NCBI GenBank assembly: GCA_021432655.1
Contig: MU271555.1
Coordinates: 1-44,987 of the forward strand
Origin: Atractiella rhizophila
Lineage: Eukaryota
Length of the DNA: 44,987 bases
Direction: 5' to 3'
Shown: piece after piece, positions 1 to 29,448 of the stretch
Numbering within the stretch: position 1 is the first letter of the stretch
How the letters are laid out: every line of letters begins with the position of its first letter
Position numbers and translations under genes: made by a program
The notes under the pieces: generated by a model
The model's database searches: none
What the model was told of the DNA's origin: nothing
What the model saw: the letters and a program-made list of their open reading frames with translations, nothing else

Positions 1-118
1 CCTAACCCTAACCCTAACCCTAACCCTAACCCTAACCCTAACCCTAACCCTAACCCTAACCCTAACCCTAACCCTAACCCTAACCCTAACCCTAAGTAAC
101 CCTAAACCCTAACCCTAA
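1..118. repeat. Telomeric repeat array (CCCTAA)n / (TTAGGG)n with variant units at the inner edge
   Basis: Perfect CCCTAA repeats from 1 to about 95, then variant units (CCCTAAGTAA, CCCTAAA) to 118. The C-rich strand is at the 5' end, as expected for a left chromosome end. Confidence 0.98.
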
Positions 119-3050
119 GAATCCTCAGGCAACTAAAACCTTTGTTGTCACTACTTTTGACGCAAACGCTCGAGTTGCGAAGAAGCTCCAATCTTACAAC
201 ATATTGCTATCAAACACACCTATTGAACTAGCTGAGAAGTGTTCTGTCCTTCAAGCAGCTGAAGCCACATCAGCCTCCCAGGGAGTCTTCAGCCCTGTCT
301 CTCTTGACAACCAGAAATTCTTTGATGGTGGGTTTGGAACTAGTAATCCATCTGATCTTGCTCTGAAGGAAGTGAAGAAATTGTGGGGGAAGAACCTGAG
401 AATCGCTTGCTTCGTTTCAATCGGAACTGGAGAGCAGATGCCCGCCGATGCAGGCTCGCTGGAGGCTTTGAGAGAGATTGTCGAAGACTGCACCAAAGTT
501 CACCGTGAGGTTCAGTATGTCTTCGAATCGGACGGAACGGGCAATAGCTATTTTCGTTTCAGTGCTCCTTTGATGGCGATAGGGTCGCAGCAATGGAAGG
601 AAAAAGAGAAGGTTGTTGGCCTCGTCAAATCCTACGTACAAACCGATGGGATGAGCATGGCATACGCTGCCGGAAGCGTCTTGACAAAAGGTGCCTATTG
701 CTGTTTTTGCACAAGAAATGGCTCTGATATATACTAGAATCAACCAAAAGAGCTATACTTGCATTGCCATCGGTTCCTCTTCCACTCCGACCTCTCTGCT
801 ATGGTCGAGCAGCGGAGAAAGATGCGACTGTCGATCACGTCCTCGCTGGCCGGCATGTCGCGATTATATGTGGAGCCGGAGATGGCAAGTCTACAGTCGC
901 CAAAGCAATCCTTTACGACCCACGGGTTCAGGCGAAGTTTCGTGAGCATTTCTTCATTCGATGCGACAATTTCTACAACTTCAAAGACCTCGAATTTCAC
1001 CTCACTATCCACGTCTTCAAAGGTCAACAAGGCGACGAAGTTGGTCTCACAGATCACTTTGCCAACCGAAATTGCCTCCTTGTTCTTGACAATTTTGAAA
1101 CACCAGCTCACCGTGACGAACGCGGACGAAGAAACTTCTTCAAACTCTTGCTCTCCAAAAGGTCATTAACCCTGTCTGCTCTCGTTGTCGTCCACCACGG
1201 TCGTCACCCATATGTGATTCCTGTCGATGATCTTGCCTTCCAAACTATCTCGATTGGTCGGCTGGATGAACATGACGCCGTAAAGTTATTTCAGCATGAC
1301 TATGCCCGAATGAAAGACACAGAGGCACCGGTTGTGAAGGAGATTGTCAAGGAGCTCGACTATCATGCTCTGTCAACGAAACTCTTTGCCCTACGCGCTG
1401 AAAAAGACGACTATAAAAATCTTTCTCAATTGTTGGAGGAATGGAGACTCACCAAAACTCAACTGCTGCAAGATGCTGCTATCAACGATTCTGACAGCTT
1501 TACCTCTAACGAGAGAAATGGCTGTGACGATACAGACGAAAAACTCAAAGTCACGCCCAAGAGTTCCATCGTGCTGTCTCTCAGTTCACCCCTCATCTTC
1601 AACTGCGTCCATGCACTTTTGTTCCTGGTTTTCATTTCGCACTGCCCCGATGGACTTCGTTTTGATCATTTGAAAGACCTTCGTGTCAATAAACACGATC
1701 GCCAGGCTGCTCGCCTGCTTCAAGATGTTGGCCTCGTTGAAGACCCGTGTGAACTTCTCGTTGCGACCAAGCGACTTCGGATGCTTGCACCAATCCGAGA
1801 ATTCATCAATAGTTTCTTCAGCTCCCCGTCGTTTCCACTTGATCTCTTGTCTATACCTCGAACCTACTTCGATACGAGTGATTTTATCAACGAGAAGAAA
1901 GGCGAAAGCGGTCCAAAGAAGACACTATTTCACTTCATGTTGATTCCATACTGTTGTCCGCACGACTGGTCAGAAGAGCGTCCAGGCGAATGACGAGATA
2001 GACGGTCAAACTAACTATCGAGTCTGGTTTCTTGAACACTTGCTAAGATACGAGATTAAGTATGCCCAGGATATTGTCAGTGACGTGACATCACAAAAGC
2101 TTTCGAAGAAGGATGGCTGTCTTTTGTTGGCCGAAGAACTGCGAAATATTTCACATTTACTTCTTGGATTGTACAAGGTGATTCACCTGCAGTCGTATCC
2201 AAAGCTTAAACAAACTTGTCATCATTTCGTGAACGACTTGACCATTTTCAAGAAACAAGAATACCCAATGCCCGAAGAATTGCTAGTCGAGACCACCGAG
2301 ATTGCGAAGGAGGACGGCACGTACGAGGGACCGTTGGCCTTCTCGCTGGGGATGATCTTTGCAACCACAGGGAGACCACAACAAGCGGTCCGGTATTTGA
2401 CAGCTGCCAAAATTCTGCTATCAGACACGAACAATGTCGGATGTTCAGCGGCTTGTCAACTCAACCTTGGGATTCTCTTGAAAGACTCAGGACACAACGA
2501 TGACGCTCTACAAAATTTCAATGAAGCACGCGAAGCGTTCCAGAATATCAATGACCGTCGGAGTGTCGCTGCCTGTCTATTCAACATCGGGACGATCAAC
2601 CAAGAGAGTGGGCGTATTCCTGGGCCTTGAACAACTTTTTTGAAGCTGAGGATCTTTTCATTGAATTTGGGGACAACAAGAACGAGGCTGCTTGCATCTT
2701 GCAAGCTGCCATCATCAGTTTAACGACTGGGAACCTCAATCTCGCTCTCGAAAACTTTTGTGACGCCAAAGAAATTTTTTTTGAGCTTGGGGATCGCAGA
2801 AGCCTTGTGGCGTGCCTCAGTAACATTGGAATCATCTATGACAAAACCGGGCGGCGCGTTGAAGCGAAGTCCAATTTCTTAAGCGAGGCAGTCTGTTTGA
2901 TGAATCCCGGACTCATCTCGAAGGATCTCCAGAACTACGACGAGGCATTAGAAAGTCTGAATTCGGCAGTAGACATCCTTATGCAAGCCGGGGAGCAAAG
3001 AAATGCTGCTATTTGTGCGATGAACCTCGGCGTCGTTCACAAACTTCTCA
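119..3050 (+). pseudogene. 5'-truncated, frameshifted patatin-like phospholipase / STAND NTPase / TPR protein (fungal NLR-like)
   Basis: The frame is open from the telomere junction: TKTFVVT..LQSY..CSVLQAAEATSA..FFDGGFGTSNP..FVSIGTG..YFRF (C-terminal half of patatin). Intron 691-737 (GT..CTGAT..TAG) joins it in frame to the NTPase: CYGR, P-loop CGAGDGKST, Walker B LLVLDNFETP, SIVLSLSSP, LRMLAPIREF. Then 40-aa TPR units (A.C..N.G......G....A...F..A...F). Frame changes at about 1945-2022 (possibly an intron) and about 2622 (1-nt deletion). Confidence 0.88.
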
Positions 3051-3326
3051 AGAGCTTGATGTCCAGATTGCTTTCTACTCTTTCCACAGGGCTTCGTTCG
3101 CAAATGGGTTGTTGTTTGCAATTTGACCTGCGTCTGACAAGAGCAAGGAAGATGGATTTTTCTTTAATTCTGACGCTATCACAACATGGTGAGTTTAGAC
3201 TTGTGCTGAAGAGGGGAGTCCAAATAGCTCACGATTGTCCTTACGCATACAGGAAAAATGTTCCCGCTTGCCTCGAGTCTCAACTTGTGAGAGAGCCGAA
3301 TAGACCTCTACAGGTCCATGGTTCGT

Positions 3327-3960
3327 TTAACACAATCGTGATTGGTCCCGGCAACTCGTGGTTCTTTTTCCTGAAAAGGCATGGATAATCAAATTTGGGT
3401 CGTGAGTAGTTGTCTCATCTTGGTTATTCTCTTTGCGGTCGAACGTTTTAAGGTATGAACGTCGCTCTTGTCCAGTCAGTTGAACTGGCAACAACTCACC
3501 GTTAACCAAAGGAGAACGTAAGCGAAAGATTCAATATCGTCGGCGGCACAATGTTTCACCCGAGTTGGATGAGTCGAAGGGACAATAATTGATAAGTGCC
3601 CTAACTTTCCGCTTAAATGACATTGTAGCGGATACGTGCTCAGGCCCACACTTACAGTTTGTTCAGGCAACCGCGCCGAGGCATGGTTGATGAATTCCGA
3701 GTCTATAAGCCTTCCTCGCGCTTCACCGTCTTTGGTTCGCAACAACAGTATGTTCCCAACAGAGACATCTCGATGGAGCAGGTTAGCGAGCTGGATGGCC
3801 TGCTGGTATGCTGATATCAAATTCACTCACTGTGAAGAGAAGAAAGGGAAAGAAACCTGTGAAAGCATCCAACAGAATCTTCACCAGCTCCCATTTGGGG
3901 TTGGGTTGAACAGCGGTTCTCCCACCTCGTTCAGGGCAATCCTTTTAGAGTCCAGTTCGA
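3327..3960 (-). pseudogene. Fragment of a fungal-specific FunK1 (Pkinase_fungal) protein kinase
   Basis: Motifs RIALNEVGEPL..WELVKILLDAF, LLHRDVSVGNILL, GRLIDSEF and HCAADDIESFAYVLLW are collinear with the intact kinase at 39720-41892. No recognisable N-terminal half, and the frames are broken. Ends are approximate. Confidence 0.8.
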
Positions 3961-9782: not shown

Positions 9783-10045
9783 NNNNNNNNNNNNNNNNNN
9801 NNNNNNNNNNNNNNNNNNNNNNNNNNNNNNNNNNNNNNNNNNNNNNNNNNNNNNNNNNNNNNNNNNNNNNNNNNNNNNNNNNNNNNNNNNNNNNNNNNNN
9901 NNNNNNNNNNNNNNNNNNNNNNNNNNNNNNNNNNNNNNNNNNNNNNNNNNNNNNNNNNNNNNNNNNNNNNNNNNNNNNNNNNNNNNNNNNNNNNNNNNNN
10001 NNNNNNNNNNNNNNNNNNNNNNNNNNNNNNNNNNNNNNNNNNNNN
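9783..10045. other. Assembly gap (263 N)
   Basis: Run of N. Confidence 1.
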
Positions 10046-19602: not shown

Positions 19603-20302
19603 CAATCGAGGATGCAGATACAAACGAACCATCGCTTAGATTTAGTAAGCTTGCTCGAGTAAAGTGGATGTAAGTTGACCCAAGGCATTTTGATGTTTCG
19701 ATATTTAGTCTTCAGGAAATTTCAGTGCAGATCCCAGTCTCAGTTTTTGTAGAGGAATCCTCTTAGAAGGACGAATTACTACTCAGAGCAAGCTTTTATG
19801 GTCAGGAAGAGAGCGGCGCCTTTGTAGGCAGCAATATACAGCAAATAATGCCAGTCAAGACTACAGACAGTGCAACGGAGCTAATCAACTCAGATGCCTT
19901 TGTGCAACAAGGGCTTGTAACTTGTCGGCTTTCGCTCGGGAATGAATTGCGACGTTTAACCATTTAGACGTCCAAAGATCCCTTTGTGAAACAAAGGACT
20001 TGTGCCTTTGTCGTCTTTTGACCATACATTTGATTCGGAATATTTCCCTACTCTGTGTCTGTTGAATTCAAGATTCTTTGTAATCTTACCATTGATCCCG
20101 CTTGATATTTCCTTTCCTTCGTCTCACAGTTCTTTATGCCCCAGCTAACCGTCTAACGGGCAGATCTCGCATATATCGACCTAATATGAATCAATGGTAC
20201 ACGACTGGTCATTCAAGTGACATTCTTTGACTCGCTACACTTAGCACCTGGCCTGCAATAGGGCTGCTTGTTGAATTTTCAACTCCCATTTTCTCCAACC
20301 AT
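19603..20302 (+). repeat. Direct repeat A, copy 1 (about 700 bp, diverged)
   Basis: Collinear with 21293-21986, e.g. GAGTAAAGTGGA..TAAGTTGACCCAAGGCATTT, CAGAGCAAGCTTTTATG, CAGCAAATAATGCCAG, GGAGCTAATCAACTCAGAT, TGACATTCTTTGACTCGCT. Confidence 0.9.
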
Positions 20303-20589
20303 AAAGGCTGTTTAAGGTTTCTAGAACAGTAACTGAGATGTGTGCCACCGAAAGGGCTACCGCTTTGGTTACGTGCTTCTATACCCAGGATTTCGTTCCC
20401 GCTGACGGTAAGAGCAACGGCAAAACACAATCACAATGTGATATCTAGGAAGAGGCGAGAGCCCCAAATCTGGATGGCTTGTCGGCTTGAGAGGCATACC
20501 CGACGGAGAACATGGCCAGCACCCTGTAGCCACCTAACACTTCTTCAGAGTGTTACTGACAACTTGAGGTTGCCTGTGTTTGTTTCAAG

Positions 20590-20918
20590 TTGCTCAGGTT
20601 ACTTAGGTTCGTTACAGTTTGACAGTGTCCGGCGACGTCCACCTCCCTCGGACTTTTGATCGACCTTGCCGCTCCGCATCGGCGCCAGTGAATCTTCTGC
20701 CAGCAAAAACGTCCAAGAACCAGTCAATCGCCTTCGGAATATATTCGCAGAGGTCGTTGGGAACTGTCAAATTTACGAAGGTGGGTGCCTTTGCGTGGGC
20801 GAGGATGGATTGCTGACGTTGACGCAAATTGTCTGGGCGGCGACCACAGCTCTGCTCGGGTTCTGTGCACCGCTCCAGCTTTAGCTCGCCTCAAGTCCTT
20901 GGACATGAAATTTTGAGT
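20590..20918 (+). repeat. Direct repeat B, copy 1 (about 330 bp, near identical)
   Basis: TTGCTCAGG..TTACTTAGGTTCGTTACAG..GGACATGAAATTTTGAGT matches 22420-22750. Confidence 0.95.
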
Positions 20919-21292
20919 GGGAGGCAGTGAGCCGGAGAGAGTGAATAGATGCATATGGTGGACTTGGGGAGGTGCGGGAGGGTATGGAGAAAGTGGAGGT
21001 GGAGACGGGCATGGTATGCTTGAGATTGAGAGAGGTGAAACGACAGAGGAAGGAGAGCCAGAGGTTTTTGGAGAAGGGTGAGGTTGGAGATCATGGGGAA
21101 GGGGAAAGTGGGACGCTTGGAGTCCAGGTTGTCGCGAAACGGGAAGGGCAATCTTCGCTTCTCCGACTGAAGCCTCCCCTGCACGCACGACACAAAGGAC
21201 ACGATTTGACTTGGAGAGGGGAAGAGAGGGATCAACCTTCGACCAGGCGACCATTACTTTGCGTACAACCTGGTGAAACATAATGAAAAACA

Positions 21293-21986
21293 ATAATTCG
21301 GGATGCAGAAGGACGAACCATCTTTTGGATTTGGTAAGCCTGCCCGAGTAAAGTGGACGTAAGTTGACCCAAGGCATTTGGATGTTTCGATATTCAGGCT
21401 TCGAGAAATTGTGGCAGATCCCGCTTCTCCTTTTCGTAGAGTAATCCTCTTAGGAGGACGAATCAGAGCAAGCTTTTATGCTCAACAAGAGAGTGGCGCC
21501 TTTGTACGCAGCAATATCCAGCAAATAATGCCAGCCAAGACTACTGCCAGTGCAAGGGAGCTAATCAACTCAGATCCACTTGTGCAGCAAGGGTTTGTAA
21601 CTTTCGCCTTTTTCCAGGGTATGAATCGTGACGTTTAGCCATTTAGACGTCCAAGATCCCTTCGCGAAACAAAAGTCTTGCGGCTTTGCGGTTTTTGAGC
21701 ATAATTTATTCGGAGTGTATCGCTATTCTGCGTCTGTTCTATTTAAGATTGTTTGAAATCCTACTATTTGATTGCGCTTGATATTTCCTTTCCTTTATTT
21801 CACAGTTCTGTATGCCCAGCTAACCTTCTAACGAGCAAATCTCAATGTCGACCTACTATGAATTGCAATGGCGCACGAGTTATCAATCGACTGACATTCT
21901 TTGACTCGCTGCGCAGGGGGGCACTGAAGCTTGCAATAAGGCTGCTTCGTCAGTTGAACTTTCAACAACCGCTTTCTCCCACCATG
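21293..21986 (+). repeat. Direct repeat A, copy 2
   Basis: Collinear with 19603-20302. Confidence 0.9.
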
Positions 21987-22419
21987 CTGTGACTTATCTC
22001 TAACATCCCCGCTGAATCATGGTCCAGAGCTCTGCGAGGTGGCAACAATCAATAACATTCAACGTTTATAAAGGTTGTGTGCATATGCGTGGCAAGAGAT
22101 GCTTAGGACTGGCCGAAACATTGAAGGAGCCATGCTTCTGAAGTCGAGACCATAAGTCATTGGATGATAGAGCATTAGCTGAGATATGTTAAAGCATATC
22201 ACAGTCAGATGCAGCCAATGAGAGAGCCACCAGTTTGATGACCATACCCAGGATTTCATTCCTTCTTTTAGGGCATGCAACGACAAGAAAATTACAGTCG
22301 TGATTTTAAGGAAGAGGGGATGTGAATGACGCCGAAAGATAACTTGCGGCTCAGCGCTATCCGCCCTGCGACCACAAGCACTCAACATATGGAGGTTGAC
22401 AGACGTTCCTTGGGTTTGT

Positions 22420-22750
22420 TTGCTCAGGTTTACTTAGGTTCGTTACAGTTTGACAGCGTCCGGCGACGTCCACCTCCCTCGGACTTTTGATCGACCCTCG
22501 CCGCTCCGCATCGGCACCAGTGAATCCTGCCAGCAAACGTCCAAGAACCTAACCTGTCAATCGCCTTCGGAATATATTCGCAGAGGTCTTTGGGAACCGT
22601 CAAATTTACGAAGGTAGGTGCCTTTGCGTGGGCGAGGATGGATTGCTGACGTTGGCGCAATTGTCTGGGCGGCGACCACAGCTCTGCTCGGGTTCTGTGC
22701 ACCGCTCCAGCTTTAGCTCGCCTCAAGTCCTTGGACATGAAATTTTGAGT
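22420..22750 (+). repeat. Direct repeat B, copy 2, immediately upstream of the gene at 22834
   Basis: Matches 20590-20918. Confidence 0.95.
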
Positions 22751-29286: not shown

Positions 29287-29448
29287 TTTCCGTGTAGCGA
29301 GCAACGCTGAATAAGGCTGCACGCCAGAGACGAGAGCCTCTTTCCAGAATGTAGTACGCATGTGGACTTTCCGTGTAGCGAGCAACGCTGAATAAGGCTG
29401 CACGCCAGAGACGAGAGCCTCTTTCCAGAATGTAGTACGCATGTGGAC
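29287..29448. repeat. Perfect 81-bp tandem duplication
   Basis: TTTCCGTGTAGCGAG..CGCATGTGGAC occurs twice (29287-29367 and 29368-29448). Confidence 0.97.

Follow-up and report, generated by a model that had tools for sequence, protein, structure and literature searches.

We found that a 44,987-base scaffold of the fungus Atractiella rhizophila begins with a telomere repeat tract joined directly to the coding sequence of an NLR-like gene. The window analyzed here is this entire scaffold, and the gene, which is transcribed away from the scaffold end, encodes a patatin head, a P-loop STAND NTPase (NOD) module, and tetratricopeptide repeats (TPR), in that order. A. rhizophila is a root endophyte of the Basidiomycota (Pucciniomycotina, Atractiellomycetes). 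We propose, with a probability of roughly 0.72, that the left end of the scaffold is a real chromosome end, at which a terminal deletion in the NLR-like gene was repaired through de novo telomere addition. We regard this as the simplest interpretation. The same gene carries additional damage farther downstream.

Telomere repeats at the left scaffold end

Tandem repeat and pattern searches both identified a (CCCTAA)n telomere repeat tract at positions 1..118. At the 5' end the plus strand is the C-rich one, as it would be at a genuine left chromosome end. The output of Tandem Repeats Finder had one array of period 6, which covers 1-118, comprises 19.8 copies, and has 93% matches. When we searched for CCCTAACCCTAA, allowing at most 1 mismatch, we found 15 occurrences, all of them in 6-118 and none elsewhere in the window (0.10 expected, from 100 shuffles). 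The repeat and pattern search of the window detected no telomere repeats at the opposite end of the scaffold.

We found that the units are perfect through base 95. In the inner 23 bases of the tract, GTAA is followed by CCCTAA, a supernumerary A, and two further CCCTAA units, after which unique sequence takes over at 119. The two irregularities (GTAA and the additional A) both fall within 96-118, beside the junction, and nowhere else in the tract. Variant units at the inner end only are expected if the outer repeats get renewed. No subtelomeric repeat or retroelement was found between the telomere and the gene. Thus, end-oriented telomere repeats are joined straight to unique sequence that is not subtelomeric, as at a healing site.

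The patatin remnant

The first coding sequence beyond the tract is the remnant of a patatin-like domain (119..690, plus strand), which we identified with Pfam, phmmer, and an alignment with full-length relatives (alignment A1). Only the C-terminal part of the domain is present, and it has no start codon. The original prediction had claimed that the patatin frame is open right up to the last CCCTAA, and we found that the reading frame from 96 is indeed open to 737. In the translation of 120-737, residues 26 to 81 match positions 135-190 of the 191 positions of the PF01734 profile (E 7.1e-6, 26.8 bits). The score is just below the Pfam gathering cut-off of 27.7 bits, as would be expected when only a fragment of the domain is left. 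As judged by sequence similarity, the relatedness to patatin is secure, with an E value of 3e-24 to P0018, a protein that carries the whole domain.

We compared the translation of 120-689 exhaustively with 1.84 billion representative proteins by phmmer and found 1416 proteins at E<=0.001. The best non-self match had an E value of 3e-24 and 38% identity. Among the 149 non-self matches listed, 45 begin at query residue 1-6, which corresponds to window positions 120-137, so the similarity extends to a few codons from the last telomere unit. This bears out the earlier claim that there is no subtelomeric spacer, since patatin similarity is found within 6 codons of the last repeat. Query residues 5-6 align to residue 121 of P0018, 219 of P0020, 379 of P0021, and 147 of P0047. 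In all four proteins the patatin domain is essentially whole (Pfam profile position 1 or 2 to 190 or 191). P0018, P0020, and P0021 are the three closest A. rhizophila patatin paralogs.

The patatin domain has a glycine-rich oxyanion loop, G-G-x-R/K, near its N terminus. In alignment A1, this loop (DGGG, DSGG, or DNGG) is present in all 8 full-length relatives and lies upstream of the window's first aligned residue. The nucleophile motif, G-x-S/G-x-G-G, is likewise present in 8 of 8 and is also upstream of the start of the window. We found neither the oxyanion loop nor the G-x-S-x-G nucleophile elbow in the window gene, as judged from alignment A1 and from the range of the Pfam match. The catalytic-Asp motif, D-G-[AG], is present as FFDGG, with D at 324-326 and DGG at 324-332. 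The original prediction had described exactly this combination of a retained DGG with absent oxyanion and GxSxG motifs. Alignment A1 also shows that the A. rhizophila proteins P0020 and P0021 lack the DG of the catalytic-Asp motif and that the window copy and P0018 keep DGG.

Altogether, the gene has no promoter and no start codon, and its patatin domain is short by at least ~110 residues. With the oxyanion loop and the nucleophile serine lost, an active lipase head is impossible. The first in-frame ATG (438..440, plus strand) is codon 107 counted from base 120, which agrees with the earlier statement that no ATG precedes codon ~105. This internal ATG is the start of a public gene model, P0001 (502 amino acids, "hypothetical protein," 100% identity), whose stop is at 1991-1993.

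Sequencing data around the junction

We used four sequencing runs, X1 to X4. X1 and X2 are from one sample, which is possibly the source of the assembly, and are not independent of it; the de Bruijn contigs of X1 and X2 are a separate short-word assembly of those reads. The depth is ~122x in X1 and ~6.6x in X2, and the depth of X4 is ~2x. Most of the stretch, including the junction, is not covered by X3 and X4, and X4, which may be an RNA run, has no coverage at 50-856. The contig comparison masked 50-122 and dropped two loose ends there, and the contig letters beyond base 123 were thus not read. Contigs may also drop rare variants, and the ends of molecules are not visible in them.

An X1 contig of 3014 letters aligns to 123-3081 from its letter 56, which leaves 55 letters beyond base 123. 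An X2 contig of 439 letters aligns to 123-512 and has 49 letters left over beyond base 123. Both contigs pass unbranched from the unique sequence toward the telomere, and no other contig joins near 119. Extensions of 55 and 49 letters would be expected from a 31-word graph that took in the irregular bases (~24) and then roughly a word's length of perfect repeat.

In the short X2 contig, word depth averages 402, compared with 6.6-6.7 in its unique neighbors, which would fit a few very abundant telomere words at the end of the contig. A telomere-directed transcript was considered as the source of the uneven depth in X2 and was rejected, as intron 1 of the gene is unspliced in the X2 contig. The high mean depths in X2 are explained instead by a few abundant repeat words in short contigs.

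The NTPase and TPR regions

The original prediction had placed the gene in the patatin-STAND-TPR architecture, and we found both a P-loop NTPase and TPR units downstream of the patatin remnant. Residues 1-84 of P0001 map to 438-689 and residues 85-502 map to 737-1990. This mapping defines intron 1 (691..737, plus strand), which has 47 bases, has GT...AG ends, and leads from frame 3 to frame 2. The P-loop STAND NTPase module (738..1955, plus strand) comprises 417 codons without a stop; its Walker A motif, GAGDGKST, spans 872-895, and its Walker B motif, LLVLD, spans 1076-1090. Pfam reported only nSTAND1 for this module, at an E value of 0.0029, which is below the cut-off, and no NB-ARC or NACHT model scored above threshold.

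By tblastn, the NTPase module is 25-31% identical to 15 STAND-TPR proteins (794-1092 residues) that have a kinase head, a SIR2-like head, or no recognized head. With the A. rhizophila paralog P0119, the identity is 36%. This protein (1235 amino acids, "TPR-like protein," with NACHT, TPR, and BAG by Pfam) follows the window gene co-linearly through the patatin tail, the NTPase module, the linker, and the TPR units, at 26-36% identity. P0119 is only a distant relative of the window gene. Its TPR units are far more numerous, it includes a BAG domain, and no telomere is known at its location.

The 35 bases that encode Walker B (1067-1101, RNCLLVLDNFET) match other contigs of X1 to X3 with 4 mismatches. 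The Walker B motif is common to paralogs at the DNA level, and the paralogs P0167 and P0168 have LLILDNFETPA.

The public model ends at 1993, though the similarity to P0119 picks up again at 2031 in another frame. For the frame change at 1944-1993, we found 28 GT/GC-AG candidates that preserve the frame. The most plausible candidate appears to be 1956..2022 on the plus strand, a probable intron 2 of 67 bases (70 if it starts at 1953), as suggested by a CTAAC branch-site motif 8 bases before the AG and by the point where the paralog similarity resumes. The frame change could also be a frameshift rather than an intron. A linker and ~5.5 TPR units follow (2023..3051, plus strand). TPR_12 was found in both downstream frames, with scores of 40.2 and 40.8 bits against a cut-off of 30.1.

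Further lesions in the gene

The TPR region is itself damaged. We found that the frame changes at 2616-2623, where an intron would not fit: residues 675 and 679 of P0119 correspond to 2615 and 2624, which leaves 8 bases for 3 residues. When the sequence is read through with an X at this break, the TPR register is continuous. The sequence of X4, which is 95-99% identical to the window, has one extra A behind 2622. X1 (depth 128), X2 (39.7), and X3 (3.7) agree with the window at 2622. We concluded that a 1-base deletion within 2616-2623 is real in this strain.

At 2881, X4 is longer than the window by 39 letters (38 between the two sides, with one position aligned twice). In the frame of the flanks, they encode 13 codons that, by eye, have the TPR helix pattern. 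The fourth TPR unit of the window has 28 residues, compared with 39-42 in its neighbors, and the window thus carries a 13-codon in-frame deletion at 2881. Here too, X1 to X3 agree with the window. P0119 is co-linear with the window gene across both frame changes. The better-preserved TPR region in X4 suggests that a close relative or another isolate with a more intact copy is represented in public data.

The 3' end of the gene is probably truncated as well. The TPR similarity to all relatives ends at 3028-3064, and the relatives continue for ~80 residues further. Within this interval, at 3052, DNA begins that is present ~2x in the genome (3052..3444), where two paths join in the X1 assembly graph. 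The second path (depth 121.6) joins exactly at 3052, and the X1 word depth rises from ~128 to 261.6 at 3052 and to ~534 from 3414. The doubling of depth together with the second path indicates a two-copy repeat from 3052. Since the TPR similarity ends where this repeat starts, the gene probably lost its 3' end there. The DNA at 3052-3500, beside the remnant of a protein kinase gene, is present in two to four genome copies.

Thus, the window gene has no intact single frame from effector head to sensor: the start codon is missing, the frame shifts near 2622, 13 codons are deleted at 2881, and the similarity ends early. The frames that remain, of 190, 417, 201, and 142 codons, contain no stop. 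As they are otherwise open, the decay is recent. Among the single-base differences from X4 listed within the gene, 6 of 7 change a residue, which is too few to draw a conclusion.

Paralogs and searches for an intact copy

We searched for a copy of the gene that extends beyond the junction. The protein searches for longer or near relatives were word-limited. Neither these searches nor scans of metagenome contigs yielded a near-identical full-length copy. For the patatin part, the search for longer proteins returned 2, namely, the public model P0001 and a 44%-identical stretch of P0002. For the NTPase module, the corresponding search returned 15 proteins with 25-33% identity, and the search for near relatives returned 6 proteins, with P0167 (37%) and P0168 (35%), each annotated as "partial," as the best. 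Metagenome contigs were scanned twice, which gave 212 and 91 pattern matches, 0 of which were confirmed by tblastn. Of the top patatin matches, 10 were looked up, and 7 of them are A. rhizophila paralogs with 32-38% identity.

Neighboring genes and repeats

Beyond the NLR-like gene, the minus strand carries, at 3476..3826, what is left of a fungal-type protein kinase, with a match to positions 296-386 of the 387 in the PF17667 profile. It is followed by an F-box-like gene at 10.5 kb, an acyl-CoA dehydrogenase gene from 12.5 kb, a short-chain dehydrogenase gene at 35.5 kb, and a class-III aminotransferase gene at 37-39 kb. A second fungal-type protein kinase gene (PF17667), split over two frames, is located near the other scaffold end (40068-41889). 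A gap of 263 N at 9783-10045 lies inside an open frame and marks the scaffold as a gapped assembly.

The window also contains repeats of other kinds. At 19624-22750 we found several direct repeats of 45-146 bases that are 82-100% identical and spaced 1674-1833 bases apart, which indicates a tandem duplication of ~1.7-1.8 kb. At 29287-29448, an 81-base unit is duplicated in perfect tandem.

Discussion

According to our model, a break, or else erosion that followed telomere failure, would have removed the original chromosome end, and the loss would have halted within the coding sequence of the patatin / STAND NTPase / TPR gene. Telomerase would then have added TTAGGG repeats straight onto the coding sequence, a process known as de novo telomere formation or chromosome healing, and the repeats would be the terminus of the chromosome. 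What remains of the gene would be a dead relic, further damaged by a frameshift, by an in-frame deletion within the TPR sensor, and probably by a 3' truncation.

The original prediction had described a chromosome break that removed the promoter and the catalytic serine and was capped by de novo telomere addition. The loss of the promoter and the serine and the direct telomere junction were borne out; a single break and gradual erosion are indistinguishable here. The further claim, that the locus is a snapshot of immune-gene death by chromosome-end turnover, was not supported as worded, since it presupposes that the gene died of the truncation. The gene also carries the lesions near 2622 and at 2881 and probably one at 3052, any of which may have preceded the telomere event, and the case therefore cannot be read as a death caused by the telomere event.

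Several observations weigh against a healed chromosome end. The junction itself was not seen in reads, as the contig letters past base 123 were masked (50-122). X1 and X2 possibly come from the assembly's own source sample, and X3 and X4 do not lie over the junction. Contigs can lose rare variants, an N run at 9783-10045 interrupts the scaffold, and nothing shows sequence beyond base 1. A telomerase seed is not visible, and the last unique base on the G strand is C, which is not a telomere letter. Finally, no intact allele or ortholog was found in the word-limited protein searches and metagenome contig scans, so the lost sequence and the telomerase seed cannot be read.

Some of these points would suit a tract that is internal, that is, an interstitial telomere-like repeat, or an assembly artifact, in which case the scaffold merely stops in the repeats and other DNA lies beyond. 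The assembly is gapped and the contig letters past base 123 are masked. Moreover, a short-word assembler is unable to cross ~100 bases of perfect hexamer repeat and would break off any scaffold at such a point. Telomere tracts of native length are also found at interstitial positions in fungi (PMC8381367). We consider such a tract unlikely, as the repeats have the orientation of a true end and their variant units are on the inner side only, unbranched contigs from two runs lead into the tract at single-copy depth, and the nearest patatin relatives among the annotated proteins of the species are only 32-38% identical. The end might also have been repaired by recombination, through telomere capture or break-induced replication via a few bases of similarity. 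Recombination routes are reported beside de novo addition for naked Pyricularia ends in PMC7367193, and the irregular inner units (GTAA and the extra A) could have been copied from a donor. However, capture normally carries subtelomeric DNA along, and here the repeats start right after unique coding sequence, which makes recombinational capture less likely. Invasion within pure repeats needs a repeat-like seed, and none is visible. We judge repair by recombination to be quite improbable.

The truncated gene could, in principle, be alive. A head-less NOD protein that starts from the ATG at 438 might act as a regulator or decoy of related receptors, and a frame of 502 residues does run from 438 through intron 1 to 1993, with the patatin remnant and the NTPase module free of stops. 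Such a product would nevertheless have to come from an end without a promoter, and the public model stops ahead of the TPR sensor, whose frame is broken. Of the 7 listed X4 differences, 6 alter a residue and so give no sign of constraint, a comparison that has very low power. We think it very unlikely that the gene functions in this way.

A terminal deletion healed by de novo telomere addition has precedents in other fungi. De novo telomere formation is documented in Pyricularia oryzae in PMC7367193 and PMC8381367. In the former, truncations of the rDNA end were sequenced, and 19 of 24 new telomeres had formed on seeds of 1-4 bases. The two sources also describe nested truncations mapped between Pyricularia strains and attribute deletions of Avr-Pita to de novo telomere formation, and PMC8381367 gives the length of native Pyricularia telomeres as ~20-30 repeats. 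The A. rhizophila end resembles the Pyricularia ends in that the repeats directly adjoin single-copy or genic sequence that was once internal, with everything distal lost. Both have TTAGGG as the repeat unit and a tract of similar length (19.8 units here). In Pyricularia the progenitor is known and the seeds are mapped; in contrast, we have no progenitor and no visible seed. The host also differs, being a root endophyte of the Pucciniomycotina, as does the gene that was cut, which is NLR-like.

In Plasmodium falciparum, chromosome breakage and healing truncates subtelomeric genes by placing telomere repeats onto coding sequence, and such events have been seen arising in culture. The organism and the gene families are different from those described here.

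The gene is similar in layout to NLRs of the PLP-1, HET-Z, and VIC2 type, which have a patatin head, a P-loop NOD, and a TPR sensor in the same order (PMC10197012). PLP-1 requires its patatin domain for cell death (PMC10197012). By analogy with PLP-1-type NLRs, the shared architecture suggests that the intact gene may have had a role in immunity. Unlike those receptors, the window gene has a head that lacks its first half and its nucleophile and a sensor that is frameshifted and shortened.

Turnover in the expanded patatin-NLR family of this fungus may even proceed repeatedly through the loss and healing of chromosome ends, with members perhaps located preferentially near ends and clipped or deleted there. 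This idea is speculative and, in our view, probably incorrect. It draws on the closest paralogs, P0167 and P0168, which are "partial" on scaffolds of 46.8 and 18.7 kb, and on the presence of ordinary metabolic genes within 12.5 kb of the telomere, as if the original subtelomere had been lost.

Under the proposed model, the scaffold end presents, at base resolution, a telomere on NLR-like coding sequence in a little-studied basidiomycete lineage, formed by a mechanism that is already established in other fungi. The public annotation of a 502-residue "hypothetical protein" hides a receptor gene that is damaged at multiple sites, which calls for caution when NLR repertoires are counted. The junction may also serve as a marker for comparing chromosome ends between isolates. 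Taken together, these data suggest that terminal deletion contributes to the loss of NLR-like genes.

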